Shown: one piece after another, positions 1,295 to 19,663 of the stretch
Layout of the letters: each line of letters starts with the position of its first letter
How positions within the stretch are numbered: position 1 is the first letter of the stretch
NCBI GenBank assembly: GCA_016844585.1
Contig: JAERMM010000001.1
Coordinates: 1 to 43,001, forward strand
Origin: Chloroflexota bacterium
GTDB taxonomy: Bacteria; Chloroflexota; UBA6077; SHYK01
DNA: 43,001 bases
Direction of reading: 5' to 3'
Translations under genes and position numbers: made by a program
The notes under the pieces: model-generated
What the model was told of the DNA's origin: nothing
Seen by the model: only the letters and a program-made list of their open reading frames with translations
The model's database searches: none

Positions 1295-2833
1295 CTATCG
1301 CTGAGTTGTTTCGATGAGCCGACGGATGTGATCTACGTCCACCGATTCTCGCAGGGTTGAAGCGAGGCGGTCGTAAGGATCGTCTGCGTCAATGGCGGGC
1401 GATATTGCAATGCCCTGTCGTTCCGCCAGATGGCTTATCAGTGCATCGGCGACCCGTCCGTCTCGGAGCAGGCCGTGCAGATAGGTCCCGACGATGTTGC
1501 CATCGGCGGAACGGGCGCCGTCGAGGCGCTCCAGGCCCTCGCGTTCTCTAACAGCGAAGGCGGCCGGCGCGTTGCACGTCGTCTGGCCCATGTGGATCTC
1601 GTACGCATCGAAACGAGTCTCGCCGCAATGGGTGAACAGTCCACCACCGACCGCGCGTCCTTGAACCTGGATCGTGGTTTTCTCGCCCGCGAAGCGGGTA
1701 ATCGCGGGCAAGAGGCCCAAACCATCATCCACCCCGGCCGGCCCTTCGACCCCATCCGGGTCCTCGATTCGCTCTCCAAGCATCTGATACCCGCCACAAA
1801 TCCCGAGGACCGCTCCCCCGCGCTCGGCATGCGCCATGATGGCGCGATCCAGGTTCCGCTGTCTCAGGAACGCGAGGTCTGCACGCGTGGTTTTGGTCCC
1901 AGGGAGGATCACCAGGGCCGGGTTGCCAAACGCCTCTTCGCTGTCGACGAATCGTAGGCCTACTCCGGGCCTGTTCCTGAGCGAGTCGAAGTCATCGAAG
2001 TTGGAGATCCGTGGCAGGCGAATGACCACGACGTCTATCGATTTCTCGTTGGCGTGCGAATCGTGCGCCTCCACGGTGCCCTCGCCATATGTTCGGACGG
2101 CTGATCCTGGCAACCCCAGTGAGTCCTCTTCAGCGATGCCCAATCGGTCGATCCAGGGTACGACCCCGATGACGGGGCGTTCGAGCCGCTCCTCAATGAA
2201 CGCAATGCCGGGCTGGAACAGCGTCACGTCGCCACGAAACTTGTTGACGACGAATCCCGCCACCCGCGCACGCTCCGCATCGTCGAGCAATGCCATCGTG
2301 CCGACCAGAGAAGCGAACACGCCGCCTCGGTCGATGTCCGCCACAAGCAGGACCGGAGCGTTCGCCGCGTGTGCGACCCGCATGTTGACGATGTCGTGCA
2401 ATTTCAGATTCATCTCGACAGGACTTCCAGCGCCTTCGATGACCACGATGTCGTAGGCGTCCAGCAACGTCCTCAGGCTGTCGAGCACAATCGGCCACAG
2501 CGCCTCTTTGCGCCGCTCGTATTGCGCTGCGTCCATGACCCCTTCGGGCCGCCCGAGTACCACGACCTGAGAGCGGGAATTGCCCTCGGGTTTGAGCAGG
2601 ATTGGGTTCATCTGCACGGTTGGAGTCACTCGCGCCGCCTCGGCCTGCGCGGCCTGGGCGCGACCAATCTCGCGCCCGTCTGGTGTTGCAAACGAGTTGA
2701 GGGCCATGTTCTGAGCCTTGAACGGAGCAACGCGGAAGCCATCCTGCTGGAACAGCCGGCACAGCCCCGCAACGAGCACGCTCTTCCCAACGTGTGACGA
2801 AGTCCCCTGGATCATGAGCGCGCGGCCGGTCAC
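1295..2833 (-). CDS. cobQ: Cobyric acid synthase CobQ/CbiP
   Basis: LMIQGTSSHVGKS, PFKAQNMALNS, IEGAGSPVE, RISNFDDF, GICGGYQMLG, GTYLHG motifs. GTG start at 2833 overlaps the upstream stop (GTGA). Confidence 0.95.
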   Translation of the reverse strand: MTGRALMIQGTSSHVGKSVLVAGLCRLFQQDGFRVAPFKAQNMALNSFATPDGREIGRAQAAQAEAARVTPTVQMNPILLKPEGNSRSQVVVLGRPEGVMDAAQYERRKEALWPIVLDSLRTLLDAYDIVVIEGAGSPVEMNLKLHDIVNMRVAHAANAPVLLVADIDRGGVFASLVGTMALLDDAERARVAGFVVNKFRGDVTLFQPGIAFIEERLERPVIGVVPWIDRLGIAEEDSLGLPGSAVRTYGEGTVEAHDSHANEKSIDVVVIRLPRISNFDDFDSLRNRPGVGLRFVDSEEAFGNPALVILPGTKTTRADLAFLRQRNLDRAIMAHAERGGAVLGICGGYQMLGERIEDPDGVEGPAGVDDGLGLLPAITRFAGEKTTIQVQGRAVGGGLFTHCGETRFDAYEIHMGQTTCNAPAAFAVREREGLERLDGARSADGNIVGTYLHGLLRDGRVADALISHLAERQGIAISPAIDADDPYDRLASTLRESVDVDHIRRLIETTQR

Positions 2834-3945
2834 AGGACCTGCCTCATTGCGTCGAGAAGCGCTTGCTGGTCGGGAATCGGGCGAACGCCAATGCGGATGC
2901 AATCCGTCAGGCCAAAGGACTCACAGTCGCGTACTGCCAGGCCTCTGCTAAGTAGCTCGCGCGTGACTCGCCGGGCGTCCGGGATTGGGAGCAGTACGAA
3001 GTTTGCAACGCTCGGGTACGAGTCCAGGCCGAGGTCATCCAGGCCGCGCACGAGATGCTGACGCGCTGCAGCGACGGCGCGGCGAGACTCAGCCTGGTGC
3101 TCCTCATCGCTCAGCGCCGCAAGGGCAGCGGCCTGCGCCAGGCTATTCACGCTCCAGGGGGGAATAACTCGCCGAATGGCTGCCGCTGCATCCGAAGCAG
3201 CCACCGCGTACCCGACGCGAAGCCCGGCCAGGCCAGCGTCCTTTGTGAGCGAACGCAGAACGACAATGCTGGGCAGCCGCAGAGCAAGCGCGGACGGGAC
3301 CCCATCGCAAAGCGTCAGATAGGCCTCGTCCACCACGATCAGGGTTTCTGAAGAAGCCTTAACCAGCCTCGCAACGATATCCATTGGGAAGGGTGCACCC
3401 GTGGGATTGTTCGGATGGCAAAGCCAGAGGATTCTGGGCCTCTTCTGTCGGACCAGATCCACGATGGTGTCGCCCTCAATAGTCTCGCCCGGTGGAGCTG
3501 CCGCGTGCATCTCTACCTGAGCGCCACATGCCGCCGACCCCACGGCGTACTCCCCGTAGGTTGGTCCCAGCACGAGCGCGACGTCGCCCGGCTTAAGGTA
3601 GGCACGCGCGACCGCCCAGATCACCTCCGTTGAACCGTTCCCCGCCACGATGGCTGTTGGGTCCACCGAGAGGCGCTGCGCAATGGCCTCGCGCAGCGCC
3701 GTCGCATCGCGATCGGGATAGCGAGACACGTCGACGCGTGCAATTGCCTCAGCGACCCGAGGTGAGGGCCCGACAACATTTCCGTTTGCGCTGAAGTCGA
3801 TGATGCAATCTGGCGCTAGGCCGTCGCGACTGGCGTTCGTTGGGTCTACAGCGCCGTGTACGGCGGGCTCCAGTGTCTCGATCCAGGGAACTGGAGTAGG
3901 GCCGCTCCGATCCGTCGCTTGAGGGATGGCCGTTTCCGTATGCAT
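2830..3945 (-). CDS. PLP-dependent class I/II aminotransferase, likely L-threonine-O-3-phosphate decarboxylase (CobD/CobC type)
   Basis: HG...DFSANGN, YPD, GNGSTE, HPNNPTG, DEAY, RSLTKDAGLAGLRVGY motifs; lies between cbiB and cobQ; ATG 3945 overlaps the cbiB stop (TGATG). Confidence 0.85.
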   Translation of the reverse strand: MHTETAIPQATDRSGPTPVPWIETLEPAVHGAVDPTNASRDGLAPDCIIDFSANGNVVGPSPRVAEAIARVDVSRYPDRDATALREAIAQRLSVDPTAIVAGNGSTEVIWAVARAYLKPGDVALVLGPTYGEYAVGSAACGAQVEMHAAAPPGETIEGDTIVDLVRQKRPRILWLCHPNNPTGAPFPMDIVARLVKASSETLIVVDEAYLTLCDGVPSALALRLPSIVVLRSLTKDAGLAGLRVGYAVAASDAAAAIRRVIPPWSVNSLAQAAALAALSDEEHQAESRRAVAAARQHLVRGLDDLGLDSYPSVANFVLLPIPDARRVTRELLSRGLAVRDCESFGLTDCIRIGVRPIPDQQALLDAMRQVL

Positions 3946-4943
3946 CAGTGTTGCTGAAGGAGCGGAACGATGACATCTGCCGAGATGCTCAGGACCGTTA
4001 CTGCGACGAGTGCGAATGTGGCGGCTAGCGCGGCGGTCCAGCGCGCAATGTGGATGCCTCGTCGGATCGTGGATGGCGTGCGCTCCGCCTGCGGATCTCC
4101 GAGTCGGTAGTGGCCAACCTTCTCGAGTTGAACGCCAAGGGCTCCTGCCATTGCGGCCATCGGCCAACCCGCATTTGGGCTCTCCGTCCGCTTGTGGTCG
4201 CGAAACGCGTGCGACGCCGCTCGACCGGGATGGGCGCGCGCGACGATGGCCGCGCTCACCAGGAGAAGCGCGGTGAGGCGGGCAGGGATGAGGTTTACGA
4301 GGTCGTCGAGGCGCGCCGCGACCTTGCCGAGATGCTCGAACTGGCCACGGTATCCGATCATGGCGTCGAGCGTGTTGATCGCCCGATAGGCAACCGCTCC
4401 AGGCACTCCGAACAACGCGAAGTAGAAGAGCGGCCCCACCCAGGAATCACTCAGATTCTCCGCCAGTGACTCGATGGCGCTGGACGTCAGCAGGCTCGAG
4501 GGTAGCGATTCCGTGTCGCGACTCACCAGCGCTCGAAGCGTGTTTCTCGCCCCGATCAAGTCTCCAGCAGCGATCTCGTCGGCGACCGTGAGGGTTTCCC
4601 GGTCGAGCTGGCGATACGACATACTCACCTTCAGCAGCAACGCGCCCGCGATGATCGCGACCGGCGGGCTGATCCCATCAAGGATATCCAGAATCAGGGT
4701 GCTCACAAACGCCACGCCAACGCCGACGCCGAGAACCATCGCGGCGCCATACAGCAGCCGGATCACGTCGCCGCGATTGGGCGCCAACACCACCAGCTTC
4801 GCGATCAGGCGGCCCAGGAGCGCGACCGGGTGCAGAGGGCTCACCGGGTCGCCGACTGCGAGCTCCGCAAGCAGGGCTAACGAAAGGACGATGGCTGCTT
4901 CTGGAGGCATCGGAAGCTCGATTCCTGGCGGGTTCGGCTGCAC
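3945..4943 (-). CDS. cbiB: Adenosylcobinamide-phosphate synthase CbiB
   Basis: GDP..LHPV, LVSRDT, ESLAENLSD, YRAINTLDAMIGY, ARLDD..N.IPARLT, SPNAGWP motifs. Start is GTG 4943 (possibly leaderless) or ATG 4910. Confidence 0.92.
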   Translation of the reverse strand: MQPNPPGIELPMPPEAAIVLSLALLAELAVGDPVSPLHPVALLGRLIAKLVVLAPNRGDVIRLLYGAAMVLGVGVGVAFVSTLILDILDGISPPVAIIAGALLLKVSMSYRQLDRETLTVADEIAAGDLIGARNTLRALVSRDTESLPSSLLTSSAIESLAENLSDSWVGPLFYFALFGVPGAVAYRAINTLDAMIGYRGQFEHLGKVAARLDDLVNLIPARLTALLLVSAAIVARAHPGRAASHAFRDHKRTESPNAGWPMAAMAGALGVQLEKVGHYRLGDPQAERTPSTIRRGIHIARWTAALAATFALVAVTVLSISADVIVPLLQQH

Positions 4944-4970
4944 GCGATATAGTACCCATCTACCTCGCGG

Positions 4971-7070
4971 ATGGTCCGCGATGAGGCGAAAGGGCAAGAT
5001 CTCCGTGGCAGAATCGGAACGGAGCGCCGCCTCTTGGCCCAGGTCGTGCTGCGAATAGCTGTCGTCCAGCCGCCGGGCTCAACCTCTGACGAGCCGCCGG
5101 TGCTGTTGACGGACGCCCAGCGTGGATGGTTTCGTCGCAGCCGCATCGAGCCAATCGCTTTGTCTCTGAGCCTGCGCGGCGACGTCGGATCGCACGATGA
5201 GATCCTCTCGAGCATCGAGGAAACCTTCCTCGGAGCAATGCGCTACACAGTCACAACGAGCCTGACCCGCGCCCTGCTTGCCGCCCATGAGCTGCTGTCG
5301 CGAGAGAATGCGCTGTCACTGCCTGACCAGCGTCGGTTTGGAAGCGCCGTGATTGCTGTCGCGCGCCCCGACGGCATCTACGTGGCGCGAGTTGGCCATA
5401 CGCTGGTCGGGTGGTTCGATGCTACCGGCGGGCAGGTTCGATCGGACGATGCCGGCAGCCGTGAGGATCAAGAGCAGGTCAGCGAGCTCGGCGGTCCGTC
5501 GAAGCCACGCGTGACGACCGAGTTTTTCCCGCTCAGCGCTGGTGAGGCGGTGTTCTTGCTTCCGGGGGTAACGGCCTCGACCGTGGGTGCGAATTCCCTT
5601 GCCACAGATGGTCGTACCGATGTGGATCTGGAACCGGCGTCCAGGCTACTAGGGCAGGCGCCCGCGGCCAGCGCGGGCCTCGTGTTGTGGTGGCCTGGCG
5701 GCGACGACGACGTTGCGGACGAGCGCTGGGTTGGGTGGGGCTCCGGTGCCGCGCACTCGCCCACGCTGACCCGCAAACCGCCGGCGCGCGCGGCGCCGTC
5801 TCTGCTCACGTCGGCGGTGGGACTGGAAACCAGCGAAACCGAAGCCCCGCCATCGTCTCCCACGGGTCAGGTGGAGTCCGATGTCGTGGCGGCCTCCGGC
5901 TCGCCCCGTGCGCCGGCCCACCTCCCACTCGTCCAAATGCGCTCTGTAACCAAGCGAACCGCTCTGCTGCCTCTCGTGGTGCTCGCGGGCTTGCTTGTGT
6001 TTGCCATCGCGCTGCTGCGCGGAGCATTTCCGTCCCCCAGCGCGCCGGAGCGATCGCTGTCCGACGCAGGCCGTCTCATACAGCAGGCGCGCGCAATCGG
6101 AGACCGGGAGAGGTCGACGCCGCTTCTCGACGAGGCGATCTCCATTCTCGAGCCGCAGGCAGATCGAGATGAGGGGGCTCGCGCACTGCTTGCCGATGCG
6201 CGAATCGAGCGGGACAGGGTTCTGAACATTGTCCGTGTGACCCCAGCTCAGGTTCAAAGGCTGGCGCTGCCGAGCAGCCCATCTCCTCGCCCCGTGGCGC
6301 TCTGGAAAACCGACGAACGGCTCCTTGTGCTCGATCTTGGCGCGCAGATCCTCATTCGAACAAATGCTGATGGGACTGGTTTCGAGGCAGCGCTGAGTCC
6401 TGGTGATCCCATTGGGGGTCAGCAGATCGGCTTGTTCGTCACCGGCGCCTGGTCTCCCCCGAGAGGTGCGAATACGCAGGGCCAGCTGATGATCGTCGAC
6501 AGCGAGCGGCGACTGGTGGCGATTGCCCAGAACGGCGACGTGGCACAGCGCTGGGCGCCGCCGGACTCCGCGCGGTGGGAGCGGCTTGGGCCCGCTGCCG
6601 CGACCTACGACGACTTGTTCCTCGTCGATACCGGCGCCAGCCAGGTGTGGAGATACCCCGCCCGGGCGGTGGGCGCCCTCGGTTCGATCGTCCTTACGTC
6701 GGACCAGGAGCCCCGCCTTTCATCTGTCGTTGACCTGGCGACCGATGGAAACCTGTACCTCCTATTCGGAGACGGCCAGATCGAAAAGTTGGCCCCGGGA
6801 GGCGCCGTGCTGCCCTTCGACGGCGAAGTGCCGGACCGGCCTCTGAGAAACGCCGTCGCCGTGTATGCGCATCCGGACCTGGATCGGATCTGGGTGCTCG
6901 ATCCCGTGGAATCGCGGGTGGTCGAGTTTACGGTCGAGGGTCGGTACACGCGACAATACGTCTTTCCCGCCGAGCTGTTTCGGGGCGCCGTCAATCTGGA
7001 CGTGGATGCGAGAGCGGGCGAGCTGCGCGTCCTTACCACACAGTCTGTGCTGCTCGCCCAATTAGAATAG
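4971..7070 (+). CDS. Membrane-anchored protein: degenerate PP2C-like N-terminal domain, low-complexity linker, TM helix, C-terminal NHL/beta-propeller
   Basis: 699 aa ORF; hydrophobic [18 protein letters not shown] segment; repeated [35 protein letters not shown] blades; stop overlaps the tsaD start. Confidence 0.65.
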
Positions 7071-8086
7071 TGGCCATGCGCGTTCTAGCCATCGAAAGCT
7101 CGTGCGATGAAACCGCGGCTGCCGTCATTCGAGACGGACGCTGGATCGAGGGCAACGCGGTTGCGAGCCAGATCCCTCTGCATCAGCAGTTCGGTGGCAT
7201 CGTTCCCGAGGTCGCCTCACGCGCGCACGTCCAGGCTATCGTCCCGGTCATTCGGGATGCGATGGCCCAGGCAGAGGCTACCTGGGACGACATCGACGTC
7301 GTCGCGGGGACCATGGGGCCAGGTCTCGCCGGCTCGCTGATCATCGGCTTGAATGCCGCCAAGGCAATTGCATACGCTCGTGATCTTCCATTCGTGGGCG
7401 TCAATCATCTCGAGGGGCACATCTACGCGAACTGGCTCGCGCCGGCCTCCGAGGAACACAGGCCACCCGCAGAGCCCGAGTTCCCCCTCCTCTGTCTGGT
7501 CGTCTCTGGCGGACATACTGACCTGGTCTTGATGCGTGGCCATGGGGATCTGACGCGCCTTGGACGCACCCGCGATGATGCCGCCGGCGAGGCCTTCGAC
7601 AAGGTGGCGCGCATTCTTGGTCTGGGCTTTCCGGGTGGACCGATCATTCAGAAGGCGGCCGAGAGCGGTGATCCGAAGCGGTACCCGCTACCGCGGGCCT
7701 GGCTGAAAGGATCTTGGGACTTCAGTTTCAGTGGACTAAAGACCGCTGCTCTGCGGCTCGTGCAGTCCTTCCCTGAAGGTGAGGTGTCCGTCTCGGACGT
7801 AGCCGCGGCGTTCCAGGAGTCCGTCGCCGACGTGCTGTCGACGAAGACGGCGCAGGCTGCCACCGAGTTAAACGCCCGTCAAGTGGCTGTCGCCGGTGGC
7901 GTCGCAGCAAATAGCGCGCTCCGCGCAATGGTCCAGGAGCGGTCGCCTGTCCCGGTACGGTTGCCTCCGCTCAAGTACTGCACTGATAACGCCGCCATGA
8001 TCGGCAGCGCAGGGTATTATCGATACCTGGCTGGTGTTCGTTCCGATCTCACGACGGATGTATCGGCGAATCTCCCTATCGCCTGA
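7070..8086 (+). CDS. tsaD: tRNA N6-threonylcarbamoyladenosine (t6A) synthesis protein TsaD
   Basis: [75 protein letters not shown] motifs. Confidence 0.97.
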
Positions 8087-8113
8087 CTACGACGAACCCA
8101 CCAACTTCACCAG
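7944..8113 (+). repeat. Direct repeat copy 1 (tsaD 3' end plus end of the convergent gene)
   Basis: Aligns by eye with 12737-12903 at an offset of 4793 bp through the stop codon. Confidence 0.95.
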
Positions 8114-8335
8114 CTCGTCTGGCGCCATCCCCATGGCCGCGGCGATCTGCTTCAGCGCCGGATGGCTAAGATTTCCGCTCGGGTTCAGCGGGAGAAGCAC
8201 TTCGCCGAAGACCTCATGTTTGAGCTTCAGGTGCTTATGGTGCCCGGCCTGCACAGCGTAACCCTGGCGCTGCAGAAAGCGCCGCATCTCGCTCGTCTTG
8301 ATCGACGACAGGGCGAACCCCTTCGATTTTCCCAT
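8087..8335 (-). CDS. HicA-like small basic protein (putative type II toxin, mRNA interferase fold)
   Basis: 82 aa, basic; pattern EMRRFLQRQGY...GHHKH.KLKH...LP......L....LKQI resembles HicA/YcfA; no adjacent hicB. Confidence 0.65.
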   Translation of the reverse strand: MGKSKGFALSSIKTSEMRRFLQRQGYAVQAGHHKHLKLKHEVFGEVLLPLNPSGNLSHPALKQIAAAMGMAPDELVKLVGSS

Positions 8336-8382
8336 GCCTGAGTCACTCCGTCCCGCGAGTGCCCACCGGCAGGCCTACTTGA

Positions 8383-9552
8383 CTACGGCATGCCCAGCCC
8401 GAGACCGAAGTAGAACTGACCTGTCTTCTCCCACCAAACCGGGGAGACCGCGAGGTGCTGTCCCGCTGTATGGATGTCGCGCAGGCAGCGCTCCAAGCGG
8501 TGACCCGAGTAAATGGGGGTCGCACCTGCCAAAGCGAATACCATGTCTACCGCTTTGACACAGGAAGCACCGGTGTTGACGCAGGCCAGCCGCCGGTTGG
8601 CTTCCACGTCCTCGGGCACACCCTTGCTCGTCCTGACCGCATCCATGAGGTCGCGCGCTACCTGGTAAAGATACGCACGCGACGATTGGACGAGTGCTTC
8701 GGCTCTCGCTACTTCGGCGTGGATCGTTGGTCGCGATGCCAGGCCAGTCTGGCTCATGGTGGGCGTTTTCTCCCTTGCCAACGCGACGAAGGCGTCGATC
8801 GAGGCCCGGGCCGTACCGAGAAGGACGGAAGCCAGAGCCATGCTGAACAATGGCATGATCCCCGTCTTGAACAATGGGCCAGATACCTGTGGGGTTGTCG
8901 TAAAGAGGGAGAACACGCGATGCTCGGGCACGAAAACGTCGGCGACGGTGAAGTCGGTGCTTCCGGTCCCGCGCAGCCCCATCGAGTTCCACGTGTCGAG
9001 AATCTGGCAATCCTCGCGACGGAAGAACATCACCCTGAAGTCTGGCGCCGCGCCCGGTCCCATGCGCGGCGCGTCTCCATCGAAGACGAGAGCCACGGCA
9101 CCGAGCCAGTCGCCATGGTGACAACCGCTCGCCAGCGGCCACTGTCCGCTTAGCCTGTATCCCTCATTCACAGGCGTGGCGCGGCCCTTTGGAGCCACCG
9201 AACCGGGGATCGGGACGTTCGGGCCGTTTGCGTAAATTTCTTTGGCGCCTTCCTCTGGAAGGAACGCGGCCAAAACGGCTCCGGCGGCGAGGTTTGCGAA
9301 GACCCAGCCGGCCGCTCCGTCCATTTGTGACACGTGCTCGACGGCTTCCATGAAGGCTGGGAGATCGATCTCGCTTCCACCGTACTCCTTCGGCGTCCAT
9401 AGCTGGAAAAGGCCCGCATCGCTCATCGCTCTGACAACAGCGTCTGGGAGACGGCGCTCCCGTTCGCCATCGTCTCGGTGCTGCTCAATGGCCTGCGAAA
9501 CGGGCTCCAGCAAAACTTGCGTGTCCCCTCTTCCGAGTTCGACTGCCGACAA
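8383..9552 (-). CDS. Acyl-CoA dehydrogenase-fold flavin-dependent monooxygenase (HsaA/C2-HpaH-like)
   Basis: ERERRLPD...GLF..WTPKEYGG, GYRLSGQWPLASGC.H.DW, DTW..MGLRGTGS.DF, LERCLRDIH motifs; GGAGG SD 5 nt before TTG at 9552. Confidence 0.85.
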   Translation of the reverse strand: MSAVELGRGDTQVLLEPVSQAIEQHRDDGERERRLPDAVVRAMSDAGLFQLWTPKEYGGSEIDLPAFMEAVEHVSQMDGAAGWVFANLAAGAVLAAFLPEEGAKEIYANGPNVPIPGSVAPKGRATPVNEGYRLSGQWPLASGCHHGDWLGAVALVFDGDAPRMGPGAAPDFRVMFFRREDCQILDTWNSMGLRGTGSTDFTVADVFVPEHRVFSLFTTTPQVSGPLFKTGIMPLFSMALASVLLGTARASIDAFVALAREKTPTMSQTGLASRPTIHAEVARAEALVQSSRAYLYQVARDLMDAVRTSKGVPEDVEANRRLACVNTGASCVKAVDMVFALAGATPIYSGHRLERCLRDIHTAGQHLAVSPVWWEKTGQFYFGLGLGMP

Positions 9553-9695
9553 TGTTGCCTCCAAGGTCGCTGTTGGCTGTTCGCCATGATCGCACAAGGG
9601 AAAGAATCAACGATGCGACGCGTGTTGTGCATCGGGCAACTGACCTATATGCTTGATCGAGTCGAGCTATTGGAACTCTTGAAGGCGGTTCAGCA

Positions 9696-11348
9696 ATGGT
9701 TCTAGCAGAGCGGGAACTCGGACAGTCGCTGATCCAGGACGGCCGATGGCTGGACGCGCGTGCTGCCTTTGAGCATGCGCTCCGCGAGGAAGCGTCGCCG
9801 GAAGCCCTCTTTGGACTTGCTCAAGCGCAGTGGTGGCTCGGAGACGTTCAGGCCAGCGTGTCGTCCTATCAGCGCGCTTACGCTGGATATCGGGACCGGG
9901 GTGATTCGCTGGGAGCCGCCTGGGCAGCAATATCGCTGTGCACCACCTACAAGTGCTGCCTGGGCAATGAAGCGGCGGCCAGCGGGTGGCTCGCCCGGGC
10001 GGAAACCGCTGCAAGAGAGGGGGACTCGGCCCCTGTTCAAGGCTGGCTTTGGGCGATGCGCGGATACCTGGCGATGGACAGCGATTTGCAGCTGGCGTCC
10101 GAGCTGATGGGACGAGCGCGTGATTGCGCTGCGTCATCGGGGGACCGGGATCTCGAGCTAGTGGTGCTCGGGGACCTGGGCATCGTGCTGGCGAGGTCAG
10201 GCAGGATTGAGGAGGGCCTGCGACACGTCGACGAGGCGATGGCCGGTGTTAGCGCGGGTGAACACAGTCGCTTGGATACTGTCGTCTGGGTGTGCTGCAT
10301 CATGCTCATGGCATGCGAGTTGGCGTCAGACATTGAACGAGCCAGCCAATGGTCAAAGATGGCCGACGAGTTCACCGCGAGATACGGGTGTCCCTTTCTC
10401 CATGCGGAGTGTCGGGCCCGTTACGGAGCCGTACTCCTGGCCAACGGCCGTTGGGGGGAAGCCGAGCGCGAACTCACCGCGGCGATAAGTTTGACCGAAG
10501 GTGCCTATCCCACCGTGCACGCATCGGCTGTCTCGCACTTAGCCGATCTCATGACGCGGAAGGGGTTGATCGAGGAGGCTGAAGGACTGCTCCAGGGACA
10601 CGAACAGGAGTTGCCAGCGGCCCTTCCCCTGGCAGCGATCAAGCTCATCCGCGGGCAGCCCTCAATGGCGATGGCGCTGGTGGAGCGAGCGCTACGTAGT
10701 CGCGCCACCGGTTTCACGTCGGCACGCGCGCTGGAAATGCTCGTCGAAATTCATCTCGCAGTCGGTGATCGCGCTGCCGCGCGTCAGACACTGACGCGGC
10801 TGGAGGCCACTAGGGTATTCCCCGAAGCCTCAGCGCGGGCCAGCATGGCGTCGGGACGGATCGCCAGGGCGAACGGCGATGTACCGGCCGCCCTCGGCCA
10901 TTTTGAGACGGCAATGGAGCGCTTCTCGCGAATAGGACTACCCATGGAGAGCGCGCGGGCGCGCCTGGCCATCGCGGAGGCTTACAGCAACACGAACCCG
11001 GACCTGGCCAGGATCGAGGCCCAGGGTGCCCTGAGCGCATTCGAGGCCCTCGGCGCAGTCCTCGACGCACGCGCGACGTCTGCTCTTCTCCGGATTCTCG
11101 GCGTGCCCACCCGGTCAGGTCCGCGAGGTTTTGGGGTGCTGACCAGGCGAGAGCAAGAGGTCTTAAGGCTCCTGAGCAGCGGGCTCTCAAACCCGGAAAT
11201 CGCTGAGCGACTGGTCATAAGCCGGAAGACGGCAGCGCACCACGTGAGTAGCCTGCTATCGAAGCTTGCACTACGCAATCGGGCGGAAGCTGTCGCATAT
11301 GCCGCGCGAGTTTCCAGGCAATCCCTAAACACCGCGGCTACAAACTAG
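9696..11348 (+). CDS. TPR-containing LuxR-family transcriptional regulator
   Basis: Helical TPR-like body; C-terminal LTRREQEVLRLLSSGLSNPEIAERLVISRKTAAHHVSSLLSKL HTH; divergent from the monooxygenase. Confidence 0.9.
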   Translation: MVLAERELGQSLIQDGRWLDARAAFEHALREEASPEALFGLAQAQWWLGDVQASVSSYQRAYAGYRDRGDSLGAAWAAISLCTTYKCCLGNEAAASGWLARAETAAREGDSAPVQGWLWAMRGYLAMDSDLQLASELMGRARDCAASSGDRDLELVVLGDLGIVLARSGRIEEGLRHVDEAMAGVSAGEHSRLDTVVWVCCIMLMACELASDIERASQWSKMADEFTARYGCPFLHAECRARYGAVLLANGRWGEAERELTAAISLTEGAYPTVHASAVSHLADLMTRKGLIEEAEGLLQGHEQELPAALPLAAIKLIRGQPSMAMALVERALRSRATGFTSARALEMLVEIHLAVGDRAAARQTLTRLEATRVFPEASARASMASGRIARANGDVPAALGHFETAMERFSRIGLPMESARARLAIAEAYSNTNPDLARIEAQGALSAFEALGAVLDARATSALLRILGVPTRSGPRGFGVLTRREQEVLRLLSSGLSNPEIAERLVISRKTAAHHVSSLLSKLALRNRAEAVAYAARVSRQSLNTAATN

Positions 11349-11543
11349 GGTGTGGCTCCGGGTATCCTGTCTTCGATTGAGCTAGTCGTCACTATCCGCC
11401 GATGGTGATGCAGATCCTTCGTTGGCCGCGATAGGTGGAAGGGCCACGGCTTCCTTCGATCCGAGCAGCTACGTCTCGATGGCCTTCCGGACCGGACCGC
11501 TTCCGACGCGAGCTTCTTCGGGATGTGTTCGCCGACCCGTCGT

Positions 11544-12317
11544 TCAGTGATCCTCTGCCAGGAACTCCAGCACGAGTCCGGCCACTACATCGGGCTTCTC
11601 CATCGGCAGGCCATGGGTGGCGTCCGGCACAACCTCCAGCCGAGAGTCGGGCAGCGATCGCTGCATTGCTTTGGCGTGCTCTACGGTCGGAAAGTCATGG
11701 TCGGCCACTATGACCAGGGTGGGCGCCGATACTTTCTCAAGCTCAGCAAGGGGGATATTGGGTTCGGTCCTGATCATCTGCCACACCTTGTCGACGACAA
11801 CTTCCCAATGCTCAGGTCCGTCCGGTGAAACGGCCGCGTACATGTCACGGAGCATGGGTGGCAGCATGTCCGGCATTTTGTCCAGTTTCATCATCTCGAC
11901 TACCTCGGGCGGCACCCCCTCTGGGTTGATGGCCTGCCCGATCAGCACCAGCCGGCGCACGAGGTCGGGGCGACGAAGGGCCACGAGCAGCCCAACGACG
12001 GCTCCGTCGCTCCACCCCACGAGATGAGCCGAGGACAGGTTCACCGCTTTCAGAAAGGCAATCGTGTCGTGCGCCATGATCTCGTAGGTGATGGGTCCCG
12101 CGACGTCGGCCGTGCGTCCGTGCGCGCGCCGCTCGGGTAGATAAACGCGGTATCGCTCGGCTAGCTTTGGCGTCAGGCCGCTGAACGTCTCGATGGTGCA
12201 GAGCCCGCCGTGGAGAAGAACTAGCGGGTCTCCCGATCCCTCGGCCTCGTAATAGGTCCGAAGATTCCCGGCGTCAACGTAGCCCTGGATCTTCTCTGCG
12301 TCTTGCGATTTCGTCAT
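11544..12317 (-). CDS. Alpha/beta fold hydrolase
   Basis: LVLLHGG, RRAHGRT, nucleophile elbow GWSDG, acid ADHD, catalytic H in ATHGLP..KP; purine-rich SD upstream of ATG 12317. Confidence 0.9.
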   Translation of the reverse strand: MTKSQDAEKIQGYVDAGNLRTYYEAEGSGDPLVLLHGGLCTIETFSGLTPKLAERYRVYLPERRAHGRTADVAGPITYEIMAHDTIAFLKAVNLSSAHLVGWSDGAVVGLLVALRRPDLVRRLVLIGQAINPEGVPPEVVEMMKLDKMPDMLPPMLRDMYAAVSPDGPEHWEVVVDKVWQMIRTEPNIPLAELEKVSAPTLVIVADHDFPTVEHAKAMQRSLPDSRLEVVPDATHGLPMEKPDVVAGLVLEFLAEDH

Positions 12318-12736
12318 GGTCCTGCTCCCCGCCTCCGTGATCAATGCACCGCTTCTCTCAATTGTGCTCGATCACCATTCGCCCTGCGGCAAATGTCCGC
12401 GTGATCGACCGCGCCCATCACGATCACCAAATGGTGCGGCCTGATTTCAAGATTAACGACGCCGAGCTGGCAGCCTCACGGCGAGCCTGGGCGAGTTCGG
12501 CTTCGTCCAGTCGGTGTTGGCCCGGCACGATGACTACCTGTCAGACCGGGTCAATTTCACCTGGTGGGCCCCAGTCCGTCGCCTGCGCCAGCGCGTCAAA
12601 CTTCTCTACAAGCCTGAGTGCTTGTGATGCCCGCCAGTCAGGGGCGACGACAGAGCGTCCAGGAAAGCCCGCGCTCTAGAATCGACATCGCGGATTTCAC
12701 ACTTCAGGTCTTCTCCCGGTTGCTCGATACGCTCTG

Positions 12737-12903
12737 CGCCTGTTCCAGTACGTTTGCCTCCGCTCAAGTACTGCACTGACAACGCCGCCATGATCGGCAG
12801 CGCAGGGTATTACCGATACCTGGCTGGCGTCCGTTCCGATCTCACGACGGACGTGTCGGCGAATCTCCCCATCGCCTGACTAGGAACCCACCAACTTCAC
12901 CAG
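12737..12903 (+). repeat. Direct repeat copy 2: orphan 3' fragment of tsaD (46 codons plus stop) and hicA-like tail
   Basis: Encodes [46 protein letters not shown], identical in protein to the TsaD C-terminus, with 10 third-position differences. Confidence 0.95.
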
Positions 12904-13818
12904 GTCCTGCTCAGCCCGTGCCAACGTCCGAAGTGCCTCCTCCTTCTCCTTCTCCGCCAGGTCGCGGCTTTGCGCAGCAGCGCGAGCAGCCTGCTCGGCG
13001 GCCGTGGCCTTCTCCTCCACGACAAGCAGCCGCGCGCGAAGATCTTCCAGCCCTTTGAGCGCTTCACCATGGTGTCGCTTCGCAGCCTCGGCTTCGCGGC
13101 TGCGATCGGCGAGGGTATCCGCCGCGGCCTCGAGAGCTGCGCGCGCCTCACTCGCGCGACGCTCCGCCCCCTCGCGGCGCTCGCGCGCATGCTGGTCAGC
13201 TCGCGCTCGGATGTCATCGATCTTCCGACGTGGAGACGACGTGGGGACCTTGCGTTCCGGCTTGATCGGCCGCTCGGCTCGCGGGACTGGGACCACGAAC
13301 GTGTCTGGCCCGAAACCCCCGTAGGAGGCCGCCTTCACGAGCCGCCCACTGCGTACCTCGGTGGCAACGTCAGTGCTCGCAAGGGCGGCGGCCAGCGTGT
13401 CCCGCACCTCCCGCTCAATGCTTGTGGTCAGGACGACCTCAGCCTGCTCGGCGAGCTTGTGCCCTCGGCTAATGAGTCCCGCCTCCAGCTCGCGCCGTCG
13501 GGCGGTCAAGCGACGGAACTCTTCAACGGACCCTTGAGCTTGAGCGTGGCTCAGATCCTCGGCAAGTTGGAGGAAGTCTTCGATGACCTGGCGCTGGTCC
13601 CGCCACAGTAAATTGACGACCCAGGCACTCTGAGTTGGCCGGCGCAATTGGGTCAGCGCACGGGCTAGCTGCTGCTGCCCTTGAGCCCGAGCCTTTCGAA
13701 CCTCGTCATCGCGAGCCGCTGTGAAGGATTCCGGGAGCAACGCGTACAGCTCGTAGGCAATCTGGCCAAGCTCGCGTTCAACATCAGCCTCAGATTGCCT
13801 CGAAGGTGATTCGCTCAT
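12880..13818 (-). CDS. Hypothetical coiled-coil protein
   Basis: ELYAL.PE.FTAARD...LRRPT.SAWVVNLL N-terminus resembles a conserved hypothetical family common in Actinobacteria; Ala/Glu/Arg-rich coiled-coil C-terminus. Start ATG 13818 or 13827. Confidence 0.7.
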   Translation of the reverse strand: MSESPSRQSEADVERELGQIAYELYALLPESFTAARDDEVRKARAQGQQQLARALTQLRRPTQSAWVVNLLWRDQRQVIEDFLQLAEDLSHAQAQGSVEEFRRLTARRRELEAGLISRGHKLAEQAEVVLTTSIEREVRDTLAAALASTDVATEVRSGRLVKAASYGGFGPDTFVVPVPRAERPIKPERKVPTSSPRRKIDDIRARADQHARERREGAERRASEARAALEAAADTLADRSREAEAAKRHHGEALKGLEDLRARLLVVEEKATAAEQAARAAAQSRDLAEKEKEEALRTLARAEQDLVKLVGS

Positions 13819-13917
13819 TGCATCCATCTTCGCACAGCCGCGGCAGATGCTGGGCAGCGCTGGGTTCCTGCGACGTGCGATACTCTCCGCATCAATTCCA
13901 CCGATGAGGAGACGAGA

Positions 13918-14205
13918 ATGGCAGTTGCTGTGCAACTCGATTTCAAAGGCGCAACCCTTGAGCAATACGACCAGGTGGTCCAGAAGATGGGCTTCCACCC
14001 CGGCGGACCCGGCGCACCCGGGGGAATGTTCCATTGGGTTACCAAAACGGCTGACGGCATTAGGGTCACGGATGTGTGGAATTCTCGGGAGCGGTTCGAG
14101 AAGTTCTCCCAGGAAAAGATCGCCCCCATTACCCAGGAAGTCGGGTTCTCAGCGCCGCCGGTCGTCCAGTTCTTCGAGGTGCATAACCACCTCACGGCTG
14201 GCTGA
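13918..14205 (+). CDS. Small conserved hypothetical protein (possible ABM/ferredoxin-like fold)
   Basis: 95 aa with a strong GAGGAG SD; T.EQYD.V, PGG.FHW, G.RVTDVW.S.E.FE.F pattern. Confidence 0.75.
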   Translation: MAVAVQLDFKGATLEQYDQVVQKMGFHPGGPGAPGGMFHWVTKTADGIRVTDVWNSRERFEKFSQEKIAPITQEVGFSAPPVVQFFEVHNHLTAG

Positions 14206-14332
14206 GTCGGCCGGGCGCCTCCTCGCCCGCGCATTTCACTGAGGGTCTAACCGCGTAAGATGGTCATTGCGTCCAACACCGCGGTGAGTTGGTCGTTCCA
14301 CACGCGGACGCCCTCGTTGAGGAGGTGATCGG

Positions 14333-16042
14333 ATGATTCATCGCCCAACAGCGCTTACCCCACTGATTGTGGCCGCAGGGATCCTCGTCTTGGCGGCCTG
14401 TGCACCTTCACCGGCTAGTAGCCCGGCGGCTGAAACGGTTGCGCCGTCTTCGCGCTTCGGCGGCACCCTCAAAATTGCCTGGGCGGTAGAGCCGAATACC
14501 CTCGCCCCCAAGTTCATCGGCGGTTCGGGTAGTCCCGAATACCAGTGGCTTTTTTCTTCCACTCTTACGTTTCTCACTATCGGCAGTGCTCTGCAACCGA
14601 TGCTGGCCGAGGATATCCCAATGCAGTCGACCGGCAGTTGGGTAATCAACCCGGACGGCAGCATGGTGACGACCTACCGCCTGCGCCAGAACGCGAAGTG
14701 GCATGACGGCACACCCCTCACGGCCCAAGACTTCGTTTTCGCATTCGACGTCTACGTGGACAAGGACCTCCCTGTCATTCGGCGGAGCCCCGAAAACCTC
14801 ATGGCTCGGGTCGAGGCCCTCGACGATTCAACCCTCGTCATTCGATGGAAGGAGACGTACGCCGGCGCGAACAGCCTCGGATTCGAGCAACTGCTCCCCC
14901 TCCCGCGCCATGTGCTAGAAGGAAAGTACCGCTCCAACGACCCGACATTCGTCAGCGGTCCAGAGTGGACCACGGCTTACATCTCGACCGGCCCGTTCAA
15001 GGTCGACCGGTGGACACCTGGCGTTGGAATCGTGGCGGCTGCGAACGGGGACTTCGTGCTCGGGCCGCCCAAACTGGACAGCATCGATATCCGGTTCGTT
15101 CTGGATTCCAGCGCACAGCTCGCCAACCTCTTATCCGGCGAGGTTGACATGATCAATTCGACCGGGGCCAAGTTTGAGGACGCACTGGTCGCGCGGGACC
15201 GGTGGCGCGAATCGGGGGAGGGCTACATCAAGACCTTCAGCTCGCAAGCCCCGTACATCGAATGGCAGTTCCGTGAGGTGCCGAACTGGCAGCGCGCGAT
15301 TGCCGATGTCCGTGTGAGACAAGCGCTGCTTCACGCCATCGATCTCGAAACCCTTAACGAGACCCTCAACAGGGGATTGACGCCCGTGGCCCATGCCTTC
15401 GTCTCCCCCGAAGACCCTCTGTTCTCAGACGTCGTGCGGGTCGTCACCAAGTACTCATTCGACAGGGCCCGGGCGGCGACGCTCCTCGATGAGGCCGGCT
15501 GGCGCCAGCCCGCGGGCGGAGGCATGGTGGCCAACCTCGAAGGCAAGCTGCTCGATGTCGAACAAGCCACGACCCCGAGCCAGGAGCGCGCTTCAACCAT
15601 CATCGCCGACAACTGGAAGGCCGCTGGGGTGAATTCATCGTTCTTCGTGGTGCCGCAGGCGCAGGCGCGAGACGCAGAAAGTTCGACAAACTTCGTAGCG
15701 ACGCGGGCGAGCAGCCGGTTCCTCGGCCCCGACCAGTTCGCCTGGAGCGCAATGGATTTCCCCACCCCAGAGAATCGCTGGACAGGAGTCAACACGGGGA
15801 GTTTCTTCGACGCCGAGGTCGATCGCCTGCACAACCTGCGCCTGACCTCCCTGGACGACGATCAGCGGCGGCAGGCAACGATCTCGCTGATGAAGCGCAT
15901 GACCGAGGTTGTAGCTCCGATGCCCGTCCTCTACTCCGTTGAGTTCATTGTGGCGCGCAGGTATGTGCTCGGACCCGTGGGACGGGTGAGTGGACAGAAC
16001 GGGCTGACGTGGAATGTCCACGAGTGGGCGCTGACGCCCTAG
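14333..16042 (+). CDS. ABC transporter substrate-binding lipoprotein, family 5 (peptide/nickel)
   Basis: GAGGAGGTGA SD; lipobox LAAC; LRQNAKWHDGTPLTAQDFVF, STGPFKV..W.PG, DVRVRQAL.HAID motifs. No permease or ATPase genes adjacent. Confidence 0.92.
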   Translation: MIHRPTALTPLIVAAGILVLAACAPSPASSPAAETVAPSSRFGGTLKIAWAVEPNTLAPKFIGGSGSPEYQWLFSSTLTFLTIGSALQPMLAEDIPMQSTGSWVINPDGSMVTTYRLRQNAKWHDGTPLTAQDFVFAFDVYVDKDLPVIRRSPENLMARVEALDDSTLVIRWKETYAGANSLGFEQLLPLPRHVLEGKYRSNDPTFVSGPEWTTAYISTGPFKVDRWTPGVGIVAAANGDFVLGPPKLDSIDIRFVLDSSAQLANLLSGEVDMINSTGAKFEDALVARDRWRESGEGYIKTFSSQAPYIEWQFREVPNWQRAIADVRVRQALLHAIDLETLNETLNRGLTPVAHAFVSPEDPLFSDVVRVVTKYSFDRARAATLLDEAGWRQPAGGGMVANLEGKLLDVEQATTPSQERASTIIADNWKAAGVNSSFFVVPQAQARDAESSTNFVATRASSRFLGPDQFAWSAMDFPTPENRWTGVNTGSFFDAEVDRLHNLRLTSLDDDQRRQATISLMKRMTEVVAPMPVLYSVEFIVARRYVLGPVGRVSGQNGLTWNVHEWALTP

Positions 16043-16056
16043 CCTCGCTCGTGGGC

Positions 16057-16701
16057 TTAGCCCAGCGCCGCGATCACCTCATCGATGCTCATCACCGGGA
16101 TCCCATGCCGGTGCAACGCGGCAAGGTGAGCACGCTCAATCTCCTGCCTCGAGACGTGGCCAACAGGCGAATCGGCGACGTCGTAGGTGAAGCATGCGTC
16201 GCGCACGACAATCGGTCGGGGCAGCTTGGTCTCGCCAGCGTGCTTTGCGGCCTCGTCCAGGGCCTCCCAACGCTCGCCAATCGGCTGAGAGTCCCAGCCG
16301 CCTGCCTGCCTTGCCGTGTCGCTGAGCCCGCGATCCAGCGCGTAGCCTGAGATCAGCAGCGTGTCCCGCTCATGGTCGAGCAGCAACCGGACGAACTCCG
16401 GGCAGTTCAGCGCGCTCCGATTCGTGTGCCGTACGATCGGCTCATCCGTAAGCGGCGCCACCTCCGGAATGATTTGCGAGCCGATAGCGATTGCTCGCTC
16501 GAGCATCATGTAGGTCACCAGCACCCCGGCCGATCGGCACCCCGCCAGTAAGCGGGCAAAGGCAGGTAATCCGTCGACAACAGACTGCTCGAACCCCCTC
16601 CCCGGCCGGGTCAACTCGTCGGTGAAGTGATAGACCAGCAGGGCCGTAGTCTTACCGGTCAACGATGTGGGCTTCACGGTGCCTCGTTCGCTTATCTGCA
16701 T
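16057..16701 (-). CDS. Isochorismatase/cysteine-hydrolase-fold protein lacking canonical catalytic residues
   Basis: TALLV..., LLAGCRSAGV.V, IIPEVAP..DE.IV, DTLLISG, TAR.A, VVRDAC, EVIAAL; GAGGAG SD before ATG 16701. Confidence 0.75.
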   Translation of the reverse strand: MQISERGTVKPTSLTGKTTALLVYHFTDELTRPGRGFEQSVVDGLPAFARLLAGCRSAGVLVTYMMLERAIAIGSQIIPEVAPLTDEPIVRHTNRSALNCPEFVRLLLDHERDTLLISGYALDRGLSDTARQAGGWDSQPIGERWEALDEAAKHAGETKLPRPIVVRDACFTYDVADSPVGHVSRQEIERAHLAALHRHGIPVMSIDEVIAALG

Positions 16702-16810
16702 GGCTCGTCTCCTCATCTGTTGGTTGAGGCCCATCTCGGCGGCGATCATATGCTTGGCTCCGGGTAACATCAAGGAAATCGGGCTTGCGGCCGACTCACC
16801 GATCGCCAGC

Positions 16811-17074
16811 TCAGCCGTCCGCAACTCCGTCGTTCACGTGCTGGCTGTGGAGTTTCTGGATTGCCAAGACGAGCCAAATGACGGAGGTAACGCACAGGGC
16901 CAGAGCACTTGCCCAGAGGTCAAGGGTGAGAAACACGGCGGAAAAGACGAGCAGTATCGAGCCGGTGAGCAAACTTGAGGACAGCGCGGGCTTGTCTGCG
17001 CTGAACAATGAAGGGAGCAAGGCAGCGCTCAAGGCCCACTGACCCACCCCGATTACAACGTCCTGCCACTGCAC
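16811..17074 (-). CDS. Small 3-TM membrane protein (possibly PQ-loop/SemiSWEET-like)
   Basis: MQWQDVVIGVGQWALSAALLPSL...KPALSSSLLTG; three hydrophobic segments; GTG 17074 lies 6 nt after TACTAT. Confidence 0.6.
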   Translation of the reverse strand: MQWQDVVIGVGQWALSAALLPSLFSADKPALSSSLLTGSILLVFSAVFLTLDLWASALALCVTSVIWLVLAIQKLHSQHVNDGVADG

Positions 17075-17110
17075 TCCGGTATAGTACAGACTCAGCAGCC
17101 GTCCAAATGA

Positions 17111-17146
17111 GGACGCTTCGCCCACAGTGGGCGGGCGTCTTTTTTT
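17111..17146 (+). terminator. Intrinsic terminator-like hairpin with T7 tract
   Basis: gacgcttcgccca-cag-tgggcgggcgtc followed by ttttttt. Confidence 0.7.
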
Positions 17147-17244
17147 GGCTCGTCGCCAAGGAGACCCACAGGGCGCAAGCAACCGCCGAGCCGCCTCGCT
17201 CCTCCAGCGTCAGATTCTGTCCAATGGGAAACGCTCTCCGAACC

Positions 17245-17273
17245 TTGCAAGGCTCAAATCGGTTCGCTAATAT
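17245..17273 (+). promoter_or_regulatory. SigA-type promoter of groESL
   Basis: TTGCAA-N17-TAATAT just upstream of the CIRCE. Confidence 0.75.
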
Positions 17274-17283
17274 ATGGGCGGCC

Positions 17284-17310
17284 TTAGCACTCTAAGCTCG
17301 TGAGTGCTAA
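17284..17310 (+). promoter_or_regulatory. CIRCE element (HrcA operator)
   Basis: Exact consensus TTAGCACTC-N9-GAGTGCTAA upstream of groES. Confidence 0.97.
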
Positions 17311-17401
17311 GATAGCCGGACCCGCCCGATGTGAAGAATTTGCCCGGGGCGGACCGTCACCATCGCAGTCGACAAAAGTTCATCAGGAGGAAGGCCACCG
17401 C

Positions 17402-19346
<1,945 letters not shown>

Positions 19347-19387
19347 ACAGCGCTCGCGCGGCACGAGCGCCGCTCAGAAGATAACTC

Positions 19388-19426
19388 GCCAAGGGCGGCC
19401 ATTCGGCCGCCCTTGGCATTTGCTTT
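19388..19426 (+). terminator. groESL terminator hairpin
   Basis: Perfect 13-bp stem gccaagggcggcc-attc-ggccgcccttggc followed by atttgcttt. Confidence 0.8.
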
Positions 19427-19663
19427 ACGGGCCGAAATACTGTTTCCTCGCCCGGATGGGCCAATCAACCTTGCTACCGCCTGCGGACCACTTGCCACCG
19501 GCTCTCCGTGACCCTGCAACCCGGCCCAACAGCAGGGATGGAGATGAGGTGCCTCAAAATGCACTCAGACGAGCCGGTCGCAGCCAAGACTTGGCCAGCT
19601 AGGGACAACACCGGACCCCAGGCCGCGGTACGCAGGCTGGCGTTAGAGACGGAAGGTGCTTGC

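Follow-up and report, generated by a model that had tools for sequence, protein, structure and literature searches.

The tsaD locus and its repeated gene end

The locus described here lies in a 43,001-nt stretch of DNA (the whole of which is referred to below as the window) at the start of contig JAERMM010000001.1 (positions 1 to 43,001, forward strand) of assembly GCA_016844585.1, a metagenome-assembled genome (MAG) deposited as a Chloroflexota bacterium, which comprises 443 contigs and 3.85 Mb and is 80% complete with 3.8% contamination. The window carries an intact copy of the essential gene tsaD and, several kilobases downstream of it, an orphan copy of the tsaD 3' end together with the end of the neighboring gene, orf82. 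The features on which the argument rests are the following.

7070..8086, plus strand: tsaD, intact, 338 aa (TIGR03723 at 405 bits against a cut-off of 296.1, over residues 5-319; Pfam PF00814)
7944..8116: repeat copy 1, which holds the 3'-terminal 46 codons of tsaD with the stop and, on the opposite strand, the final 9 codons of orf82 with its stop; it is continuous with both complete genes
8087..8335, minus strand: orf82, a small protein of 82 aa, HicA/YcfA-like; its stop codon lies directly against that of tsaD (8086/8087)
12736/12737: joint J1, the left cut of copy 2, inside tsaD
12737..12906: repeat copy 2, an orphan 170-nt relic of the tsaD/orf82 junction, a sister allele truncated at both ends
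About 12906/12907: joint J2, the right cut of copy 2, inside orf82
12880..13824, minus strand (the long open reading frame (ORF) call extends upstream): orf384, of no known family; the relic contains its stop and the 8 codons before it (DLVKLVGS)

TsaD is full-length and passes the curated equivalog cut-off of TIGR03723. The block between the repeat copies consists of four genes, i.e., orf82, an HsaA-like monooxygenase, a TPR-LuxR regulator and an alpha/beta hydrolase, plus a spacer.

Two selected alleles of one gene junction

Positions 7944-8116 and 12737-12906 form a direct repeat with a spacing of 4,793 nt (4790 for the second segment). The repeat search returned it as two segments, 7944-8092 against 12737-12885 (149 nt at 93% identity) and 8089-8116 against 12879-12906 (28 nt at 89%), and in a pairwise alignment the similarity begins abruptly at 7944/12737 and ends around 8116/12906, with a single 3-nt gap right behind the tsaD stop codon. 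A genome-wide search placed the repeat at exactly two locations in the whole 3.85-Mb genome. An earlier model-made reading of the letters alone (the sequence-only reading) had pointed to this repeat, and all three analyses bear it out; the starts had been placed correctly, and the ends, given as 8113 and 12903, fell 3 nt short. No further relic of the tsaD end was found in 12950-17700. To the left of copy 2, the spacer shows no similarity in the alignment to the tsaD sequence left of copy 1, that is, J1 is a joint without homology. With both ends of copy 2 cut off, the structure requires no fewer than two rearrangement joints, and the repeated unit is the tsaD/orf82 junction, more than tsaD alone. 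It had been proposed that the block entered by recombination anchored in an essential gene, stranding the old 3' end; we retain this proposal, except that a junction repeat cut on both sides does not come from one joint.

Both copies of the tsaD end encode the identical 46 residues and stop. Within the 143-nt tsaD part, a script counted 10 differences between the copies, all at codon position 3 and all synonymous (nine transitions and one transversion), which are the same ten codon pairs that the sequence-only reading had listed. Only 26.8% of random single changes in the 46 tsaD codons are synonymous, and the probability that 10 out of 10 random changes would be silent is 2e-6, or 1.4e-5 when transitions and transversions are weighted. 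Since all 10 differences are silent, both alleles evolved under selection as working genes, in agreement with what had been suggested earlier, and their silent divergence is substantial (pS 0.27, dS ~0.34). The substitution pattern means that, since they separated, both alleles must have been part of working tsaD genes for almost the whole time. Under a model of duplication in place followed by free decay of copy 2, in which changes are allowed at ~37 silent-equivalent sites in the working copy and at all 138 sites in the relic, the silent-only pattern has a probability of ~2e-4 (an estimate from site counts). The tail beyond tsaD differs between the copies by one silent change, one whole-codon indel and one Glu/Asp change at the boundary, which looks like coding-constrained divergence as well. 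The longest perfect stretch shared by the two copies is 32 nt.

A very close partner lineage in a mixed population

The 46-residue TsaD end is 61-78% identical between this MAG and other genera of the family and 100% identical between the two copies, and an identical protein in a region conserved only to this degree between genera points to a very close lineage as the partner. The tsaD/orf82 adjacency was seen in none of the seven genomes of the order with a good orf82 homologue, and the sharing of this adjacency, together with the identical TsaD end, indicates that the alleles come from lineages within one genus-level group. Thus, the "different lineages" of the sequence-only reading are indeed separate lineages, but very close relatives rather than distant donors.

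Comparing the MAG with itself revealed 30 contig pairs that overlap at both contig ends with 86-99% identity (median 94.3%), which indicates that a sister lineage about 6% apart co-occurs with the one described here; the bin is a mosaic of at least two sister haplotypes. The 7% nucleotide difference between the tsaD alleles roughly matches the ~6% between the haplotypes mixed in the MAG. Many other contig pairs overlap by exactly 99 nt, from which we infer that the MAG was probably assembled at k=99.

We also compared Logan contigs from four public runs with positions 4000-20000 of the window. The best holder of the region (run X1) may be the source sample and hence not independent, and a second run (X2) comes from a different study. 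A 430-nt X2 contig covers 12620-13049 with 0 differences, spanning J1, the whole relic and J2, and a contig from a second study across both joints of copy 2 makes a private misassembly unlikely. Contigs of both X1 and X2 end inside copy 1, at 7981-7984, as is expected at a repeat with shared 31-mers. No joint linking copy 1 to copy 2 occurs among the 15 listed of the 22 run-contig joints, which is evidence neither way, and X2 has no depth over 13078-14145, which likewise counts neither for nor against the arrangement. One joint in a further run (X3), from 7602 to 12771, has a shorter side of 28 letters; it is too weak, probably belongs to another organism and was not used as evidence.

Separately, a 489-nt X2 contig over the 3' part of the monooxygenase gene (8375-8863) shows 22 differences from the window; of the other X2 contigs listed, five match the window exactly and two carry 1-2 differences. 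The divergent tract suggests a sister-lineage allele or a recombination tract.

Similar scars elsewhere in the genome

The self-comparison also returned further local direct repeats at 90-95% identity in this MAG, of which two, on contigs C404 and C121, were examined.

C404, 3727-3975 and 5053-5301 (locus L274): a Rieske-domain oxygenase gene (2790-3974) whose final ~245 nt are found again, at 92% identity, 1,326 nt downstream
C121, 10439-10865 and 12018-12363 (locus L275, C121:7000-12463): an NMT1/TAXI-like binding-protein gene whose 3' end is found again past an inserted SBP_bac_6 solute-binding-protein gene

The C404 repeat has pS 0.23 and pN 0.03, its left edge falls abruptly within the gene, and the ~1.07 kb separating its copies matched no known family. 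On C121, the last ~340 nt of the gene plus ~110 nt past its stop recur ~1.5 kb downstream; the relic has an 81-nt in-frame gap, the main block shows pS 0.21 and pN 0.03, and the left edge is again abrupt and within the gene. The pN/pS ratio is thus ~0.13-0.14 at both loci. Three scars with the same architecture and similar silent divergence (pS 0.21-0.27, the tsaD locus included) point to one recurring process and one kind of partner.

Additional within-contig direct repeats of 100-200 nt, at 86-95% identity and spaced 1.3-7.5 kb, were observed on contigs C246, C378, C177, C386, C277 and C136; on six-frame translation, the C378 pair looks like two C-termini of related proteins.

A model of one-ended recombination between sister lineages

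We propose that the scar arose by one-ended homologous plus illegitimate recombination, i.e., a displacement similar to homology-facilitated illegitimate recombination (HFIR), between two very closely related lineages, and we would give this proposal about an even chance of being correct. Under this model, DNA of the sister lineage would enter the cell and pair by homology at one end, in or upstream of tsaD, and the other incoming end would be joined without homology 143 nt ahead of the resident tsaD stop, creating J1. The incoming piece would carry its own tsaD 3' end, keeping the essential gene whole, and the resident tsaD 3' end, with the sequence behind it, would be pushed downstream as a dead relic. 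A mirror version, in which the orf384 side is the incoming one and is anchored downstream, would leave an identical structure. J2, which joins the orf82 tail to orf384, must stem from another event that took place earlier, in the lineage from which copy 2 came. Apart from giving orf384 its last 8 codons and stop, the relic has no function of its own. The two alleles, the two joints and the intact working genes are displayed by the locus itself; from them we infer in what order the events occurred, which way the DNA moved and how it was taken up.

HFIR is known from conjugation in E. coli and from the transformable bacteria Acinetobacter, Streptococcus pneumoniae and Pseudomonas stutzeri (PMC3240628). 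The tsaD locus resembles these cases in having one end in homologous sequence (tsaD, as a diverged functional allele), another joint without homology (J1) and a net insertion of several kilobases; it differs from them in that the process is read from the scar alone and in that the partner is a near-identical sister lineage, not foreign DNA. Displaced orphan 3' ends are also found in Rhs, contact-dependent inhibition (CDI) and type VI secretion system (T6SS) effector-immunity arrays, for which an HFIR displacement model has been proposed (Kirchberger et al. 2017, PMC5361080; see also PMC3240628). As in the arrays of Kirchberger et al., a module uses the conserved upstream portion of a gene as its anchor, the former 3' end is moved downstream and retained, and the alleles present together in one genome derive from different strains and did not arise by duplication. 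Unlike those arrays, the tsaD locus has an essential housekeeping gene as anchor, its relic measures only 170 nt, there is no evident selective retention (e.g., of an immunity gene), and the cargo is metabolic and regulatory.

Several observations weigh against this model or restrict it. First, G or C occurs in copy 1 at the first three differences and in copy 2 at the last seven, with the direction switching between 7960 and 7987; such a 3-then-7 split fits a crossover within the repeat (of the Campbell or attachment-site (att) type) and not one upstream, and would arise by chance in ~2% of cases (a rough estimate). Second, all three scars come from a single fragmented MAG. Third, neither a donor, nor a recipient, nor an empty site (tsaD followed by orf384) was recovered in the genome collection or the metagenome scan. 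The nearest genomes belong to other genera, with TsaD identities of 75-81%. The metagenome scan used an 84-aa TsaD C-terminus as query and matched at least 600 stretches, with 514 relatives of which the best 80 were kept; the conserved YCTDNAAM motif dominated the matches, the best of which was 69% identical, and none among the matches listed was of the same genus. Fourth, the G+C content at third codon positions is 0.70-0.81 in the cargo and 0.66-0.83 in the flanks, and overall G+C content and skews are likewise not distinctive; with the same composition in cargo and flanks, either side may have been the incoming one. Finally, ComEC was not found in the 80%-complete genome, though DprA is present, and natural transformation is therefore no more than a possible route of uptake.

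A stronger version of the model would be a recurrent process operating without a local integrase, in which accessory cassettes are swapped between co-occurring sister lineages by way of donor gene 3' ends, even those of essential genes. We regard this version as speculative and rather improbable. If it were true, three like scars in 3.85 Mb would reflect an unusually active or dedicated gene-end-anchored exchange and not rare HFIR accidents.

Alternative explanations

Alternatively, the block might have been inserted as a circle. Single-crossover (Campbell-type) integration of circular DNA produces a direct duplication of the shared segment around the insert, and integrase-borne islands, prophages and integrative and conjugative elements target the 3' end of a tRNA, tmRNA or protein gene, for which they bring a replacement. 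The circle would have carried the 173-nt junction with orf82, the monooxygenase, the LuxR regulator and the hydrolase, RecA or an integrase acting in trans would have performed the crossover, and the two repeat copies would be attL and attR. Several features of the locus agree with such an event: the block is bounded exactly by direct repeats and, as with an island, these are made of the target gene's 3' end at both borders and differ slightly (91-93% identity); the essential gene is intact, as it would be when an element restores it; and between 7960 and 7987 the silent differences reverse their direction, three and then seven, which is what a crossover inside the repeat gives. However, only 173 nt at 91-93% identity would be usable, the longest perfect stretch makes a poor RecA substrate, and no circular form or replicon was seen. 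The orphan is, moreover, cut at its far side (J2), unlike the end of an integrase-borne island.

The search for the machinery of such an element also speaks against it. No ORF scanned across the 43-kb window matched an integrase, excisionase or transposase family in Pfam or NCBIfam, in line with the sequence-only reading, which had seen none, and the whole 80%-complete genome yielded only two matches to PF00589 (tyrosine recombinase), both on other contigs (C158 and C301). There was no use of the site by another occupant in the genomes searched: 35 of the 39 genomes of the order (this tally, like those of TsaD identities and of orf82 homologues across the order, counts the unpublished genome G037 as one genome, which enters no other statement) have a match to the tsaD C-terminus, and only the genome studied here (G000) has two. 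Three relatives (G001, G002 and G007) carry different genes behind tsaD, and no recombinase lies directly downstream of tsaD in any of them (in G007, a DDE transposase is found ~3 kb off). Megablast of 7900-12950 against the plasmid collection gave no match, and the viral collection gave one unrelated contig, 46% identical at the TsaD end, and no viral relative. The window has no tRNA genes, and no Rfam family was detected in 6500-18000 at E values up to 0.1. A literature search on tsaD as an integrase attachment site found no report. Transposon hallmarks are missing as well: there is no transposase family and no inverted repeat pairing the block ends, and the duplication consists of 170 nt of coding sequence. 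Taken together, an att-type element is not supported, and we consider Campbell-type insertion by either route unlikely. As far as the sequence can tell, the features of an HFIR displacement scar that were looked for are present at the locus, and those of an integrase island (a recombinase, a shared site) and of a transposon are not. Hence, of the two mechanisms put forward by the sequence-only reading, HFIR fits better and also fits the two further scars, and the att-type element, with no integrase found and no second tsaD end in the other 34 genomes of the order that have a match, finds no support.

It is also conceivable that the arrangement formed in place, with duplication plus deletion leaving the exact orphan, and that the working tsaD end was later replaced by the allele of a sister lineage. 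Such a course would account for differences that are all silent and would need no illegitimate uptake of foreign DNA; haplotypes of sister lineages ~6% apart do co-occur, and the X2 contig with 22 differences (8375-8863), lying beside identical contigs, hints at a mosaic of exchanged tracts. Nonetheless, three events per locus would be required, and one-ended recombination accounts for the same build and pS of 0.21-0.27 at three loci more simply, by one step. We thus hold this alternative to be doubtful.

Lastly, a misjoin of two strains at the repeat during assembly is very improbable: the MAG is fragmented and clearly a strain mixture, and the X1 and X2 contigs do break within copy 1, but J1 and J2 offer no shared sequence that could mislead a graph assembler, the X2 contig from a different study crosses both without a difference, copy 2 has its first three variant sites no more than 17 nt from J1, which links them to the spacer even in 31-mers, and the inferred k=99 exceeds the 32-nt longest shared stretch.

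Cargo and neighboring genes

The remaining genes of the block and those that follow it up to groEL are listed below.

8383..9597, minus strand: acyl-CoA-dehydrogenase-fold flavin monooxygenase, HsaA-like (Pfam Acyl-CoA_dh_2/N; NCBIfam HsaA at 203 bits, under its cut-off of 450)
9696..11348, plus strand: TPR and LuxR/GerE transcription regulator (Pfam TPR_12, GerE)
11544..12344, minus strand: alpha/beta-fold hydrolase (Pfam Abhydrolase_6/_1; NCBIfam PcaD/HsaD-type matches all under their cut-offs)
12345..12736: spacer of 392 nt with no recognizable gene, ending at J1
13918..14205, plus strand: conserved small gene, 95 aa, no known family (no Pfam match; 74-85% amino acid identity by tblastx and 73-78% nucleotide identity by blastn to two genomes of the same family)
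14333-16042, plus strand: solute-binding protein family 5 (Pfam)
16057-16824, minus strand: isochorismatase-like gene (Pfam)
About 17402-17695, plus strand: groES, recognized by eye from the ORF translation
17718-19346, plus strand: groEL (NCBIfam GroEL at 832 bits)

Together with orf82, the cargo forms a small regulated module. The closest relatives of the LuxR regulator in the species collection are 56-58% identical and occur in Chloroflexia and Dehalococcoidia MAGs; within the order, there is no close relative and the best match is 37%. The monooxygenase and the regulator are divergent neighbors in two other MAG loci (L158 and L225), where the monooxygenase is 57-62% identical, and synteny elsewhere is limited to this pair, in 2 of 80 loci. 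In 1 of the 80 loci, on an Acidimicrobiia MAG contig (L159, 5454-11574), a TPR-LuxR relative with 49% identity sits between tsaD and groEL, a likeness to the present neighborhood that is probably coincidental. The ORFs of the spacer (12345-12736) match no family, and elsewhere in the genome the spacer has only short matches at chance level. Judging by the names that the sources give to the orf82 homologues and to the best LuxR and monooxygenase relatives, the host is probably a member of the Chloroflexota.

Judged by its homologues, orf82 is a real gene: 129 were found in a large protein collection, mostly of exactly 80 aa and many with source names such as HicA/YcfA-like, some with PF07927, and seven other genomes of the order hold homologues at 49-82% identity. 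The match of orf82 itself to PF07927 (E=0.0077, 16.7 bits) is under the 27-bit cut-off. On the minus strand, its C-terminus reads ELVKLVGSS*, and the C-termini of the family read PDELV[RK]L[AV]K, which makes the LVKLV tail native to orf82. The family, whose members are HicA-like and very uniform at 80 aa, is widespread in Chloroflexota and Dehalococcoidia MAGs. No HicB-like or other common neighbor was found among the 14 ORFs beside five orf82 homologues (loci L258, L259 and L261-L264), nor beside orf82, and a missing conserved neighbor or HicB-like partner in the orf82 loci examined is unusual for the toxin of a toxin-antitoxin pair.

For orf384, eight homologues were examined, all from another family of the order; their alignment to it begins at about residue 71-89, and their C-terminal tails are unrelated. 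The first 70 codons of the long ORF overlap the conserved gene on the opposite strand, so the ORF call is probably too long at the 5' end; the true start is likely near M71 (~13824), which would give a protein of ~314 aa. At its other end, orf384 finishes on an orf82-derived tail, fused in frame across J2. Homologues of the conserved 95-aa gene sit at other locations in the two same-family genomes.

The gene order cobQ-cobD-cbiB-orf699-tsaD is conserved in same-family genomes, and in two of these (G003 and G005) and in a metagenome contig (L050), groEL begins ~580-600 nt past tsaD; in G003, the 98-aa ORF between the two is presumably groES. The gap from tsaD to groES in the present genome is 9.3 kb, and the order tsaD then groES-groEL in three relatives indicates that these 9.3 kb are derived. 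No homology to the tsaD-groES spacer of the relatives was seen ahead of groES in this genome.

Implications

The mechanism proposed here is of a known kind, and the case is notable for its anchor in an essential gene and for its recurrence in one genome, rather than surprising. For annotation, the relic should not be called a tsaD pseudogene on the grounds of decay, and the long ORF call of orf384 should be regarded as probably extended too far at its 5' end. For the organism, the locus illustrates that several kilobases can be placed after an essential gene that stays unbroken throughout, and that a neighbor such as orf384 can end on borrowed codons. With the working and the stranded alleles preserved in one locus, the scar documents an exchange of DNA between sister lineages in a form that is dated and internally controlled, and the silent-only divergence (dS ~0.34) shows the distance between the partners. 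Such scars could therefore be used to trace donor-recipient pairs in strain-resolved metagenomes.

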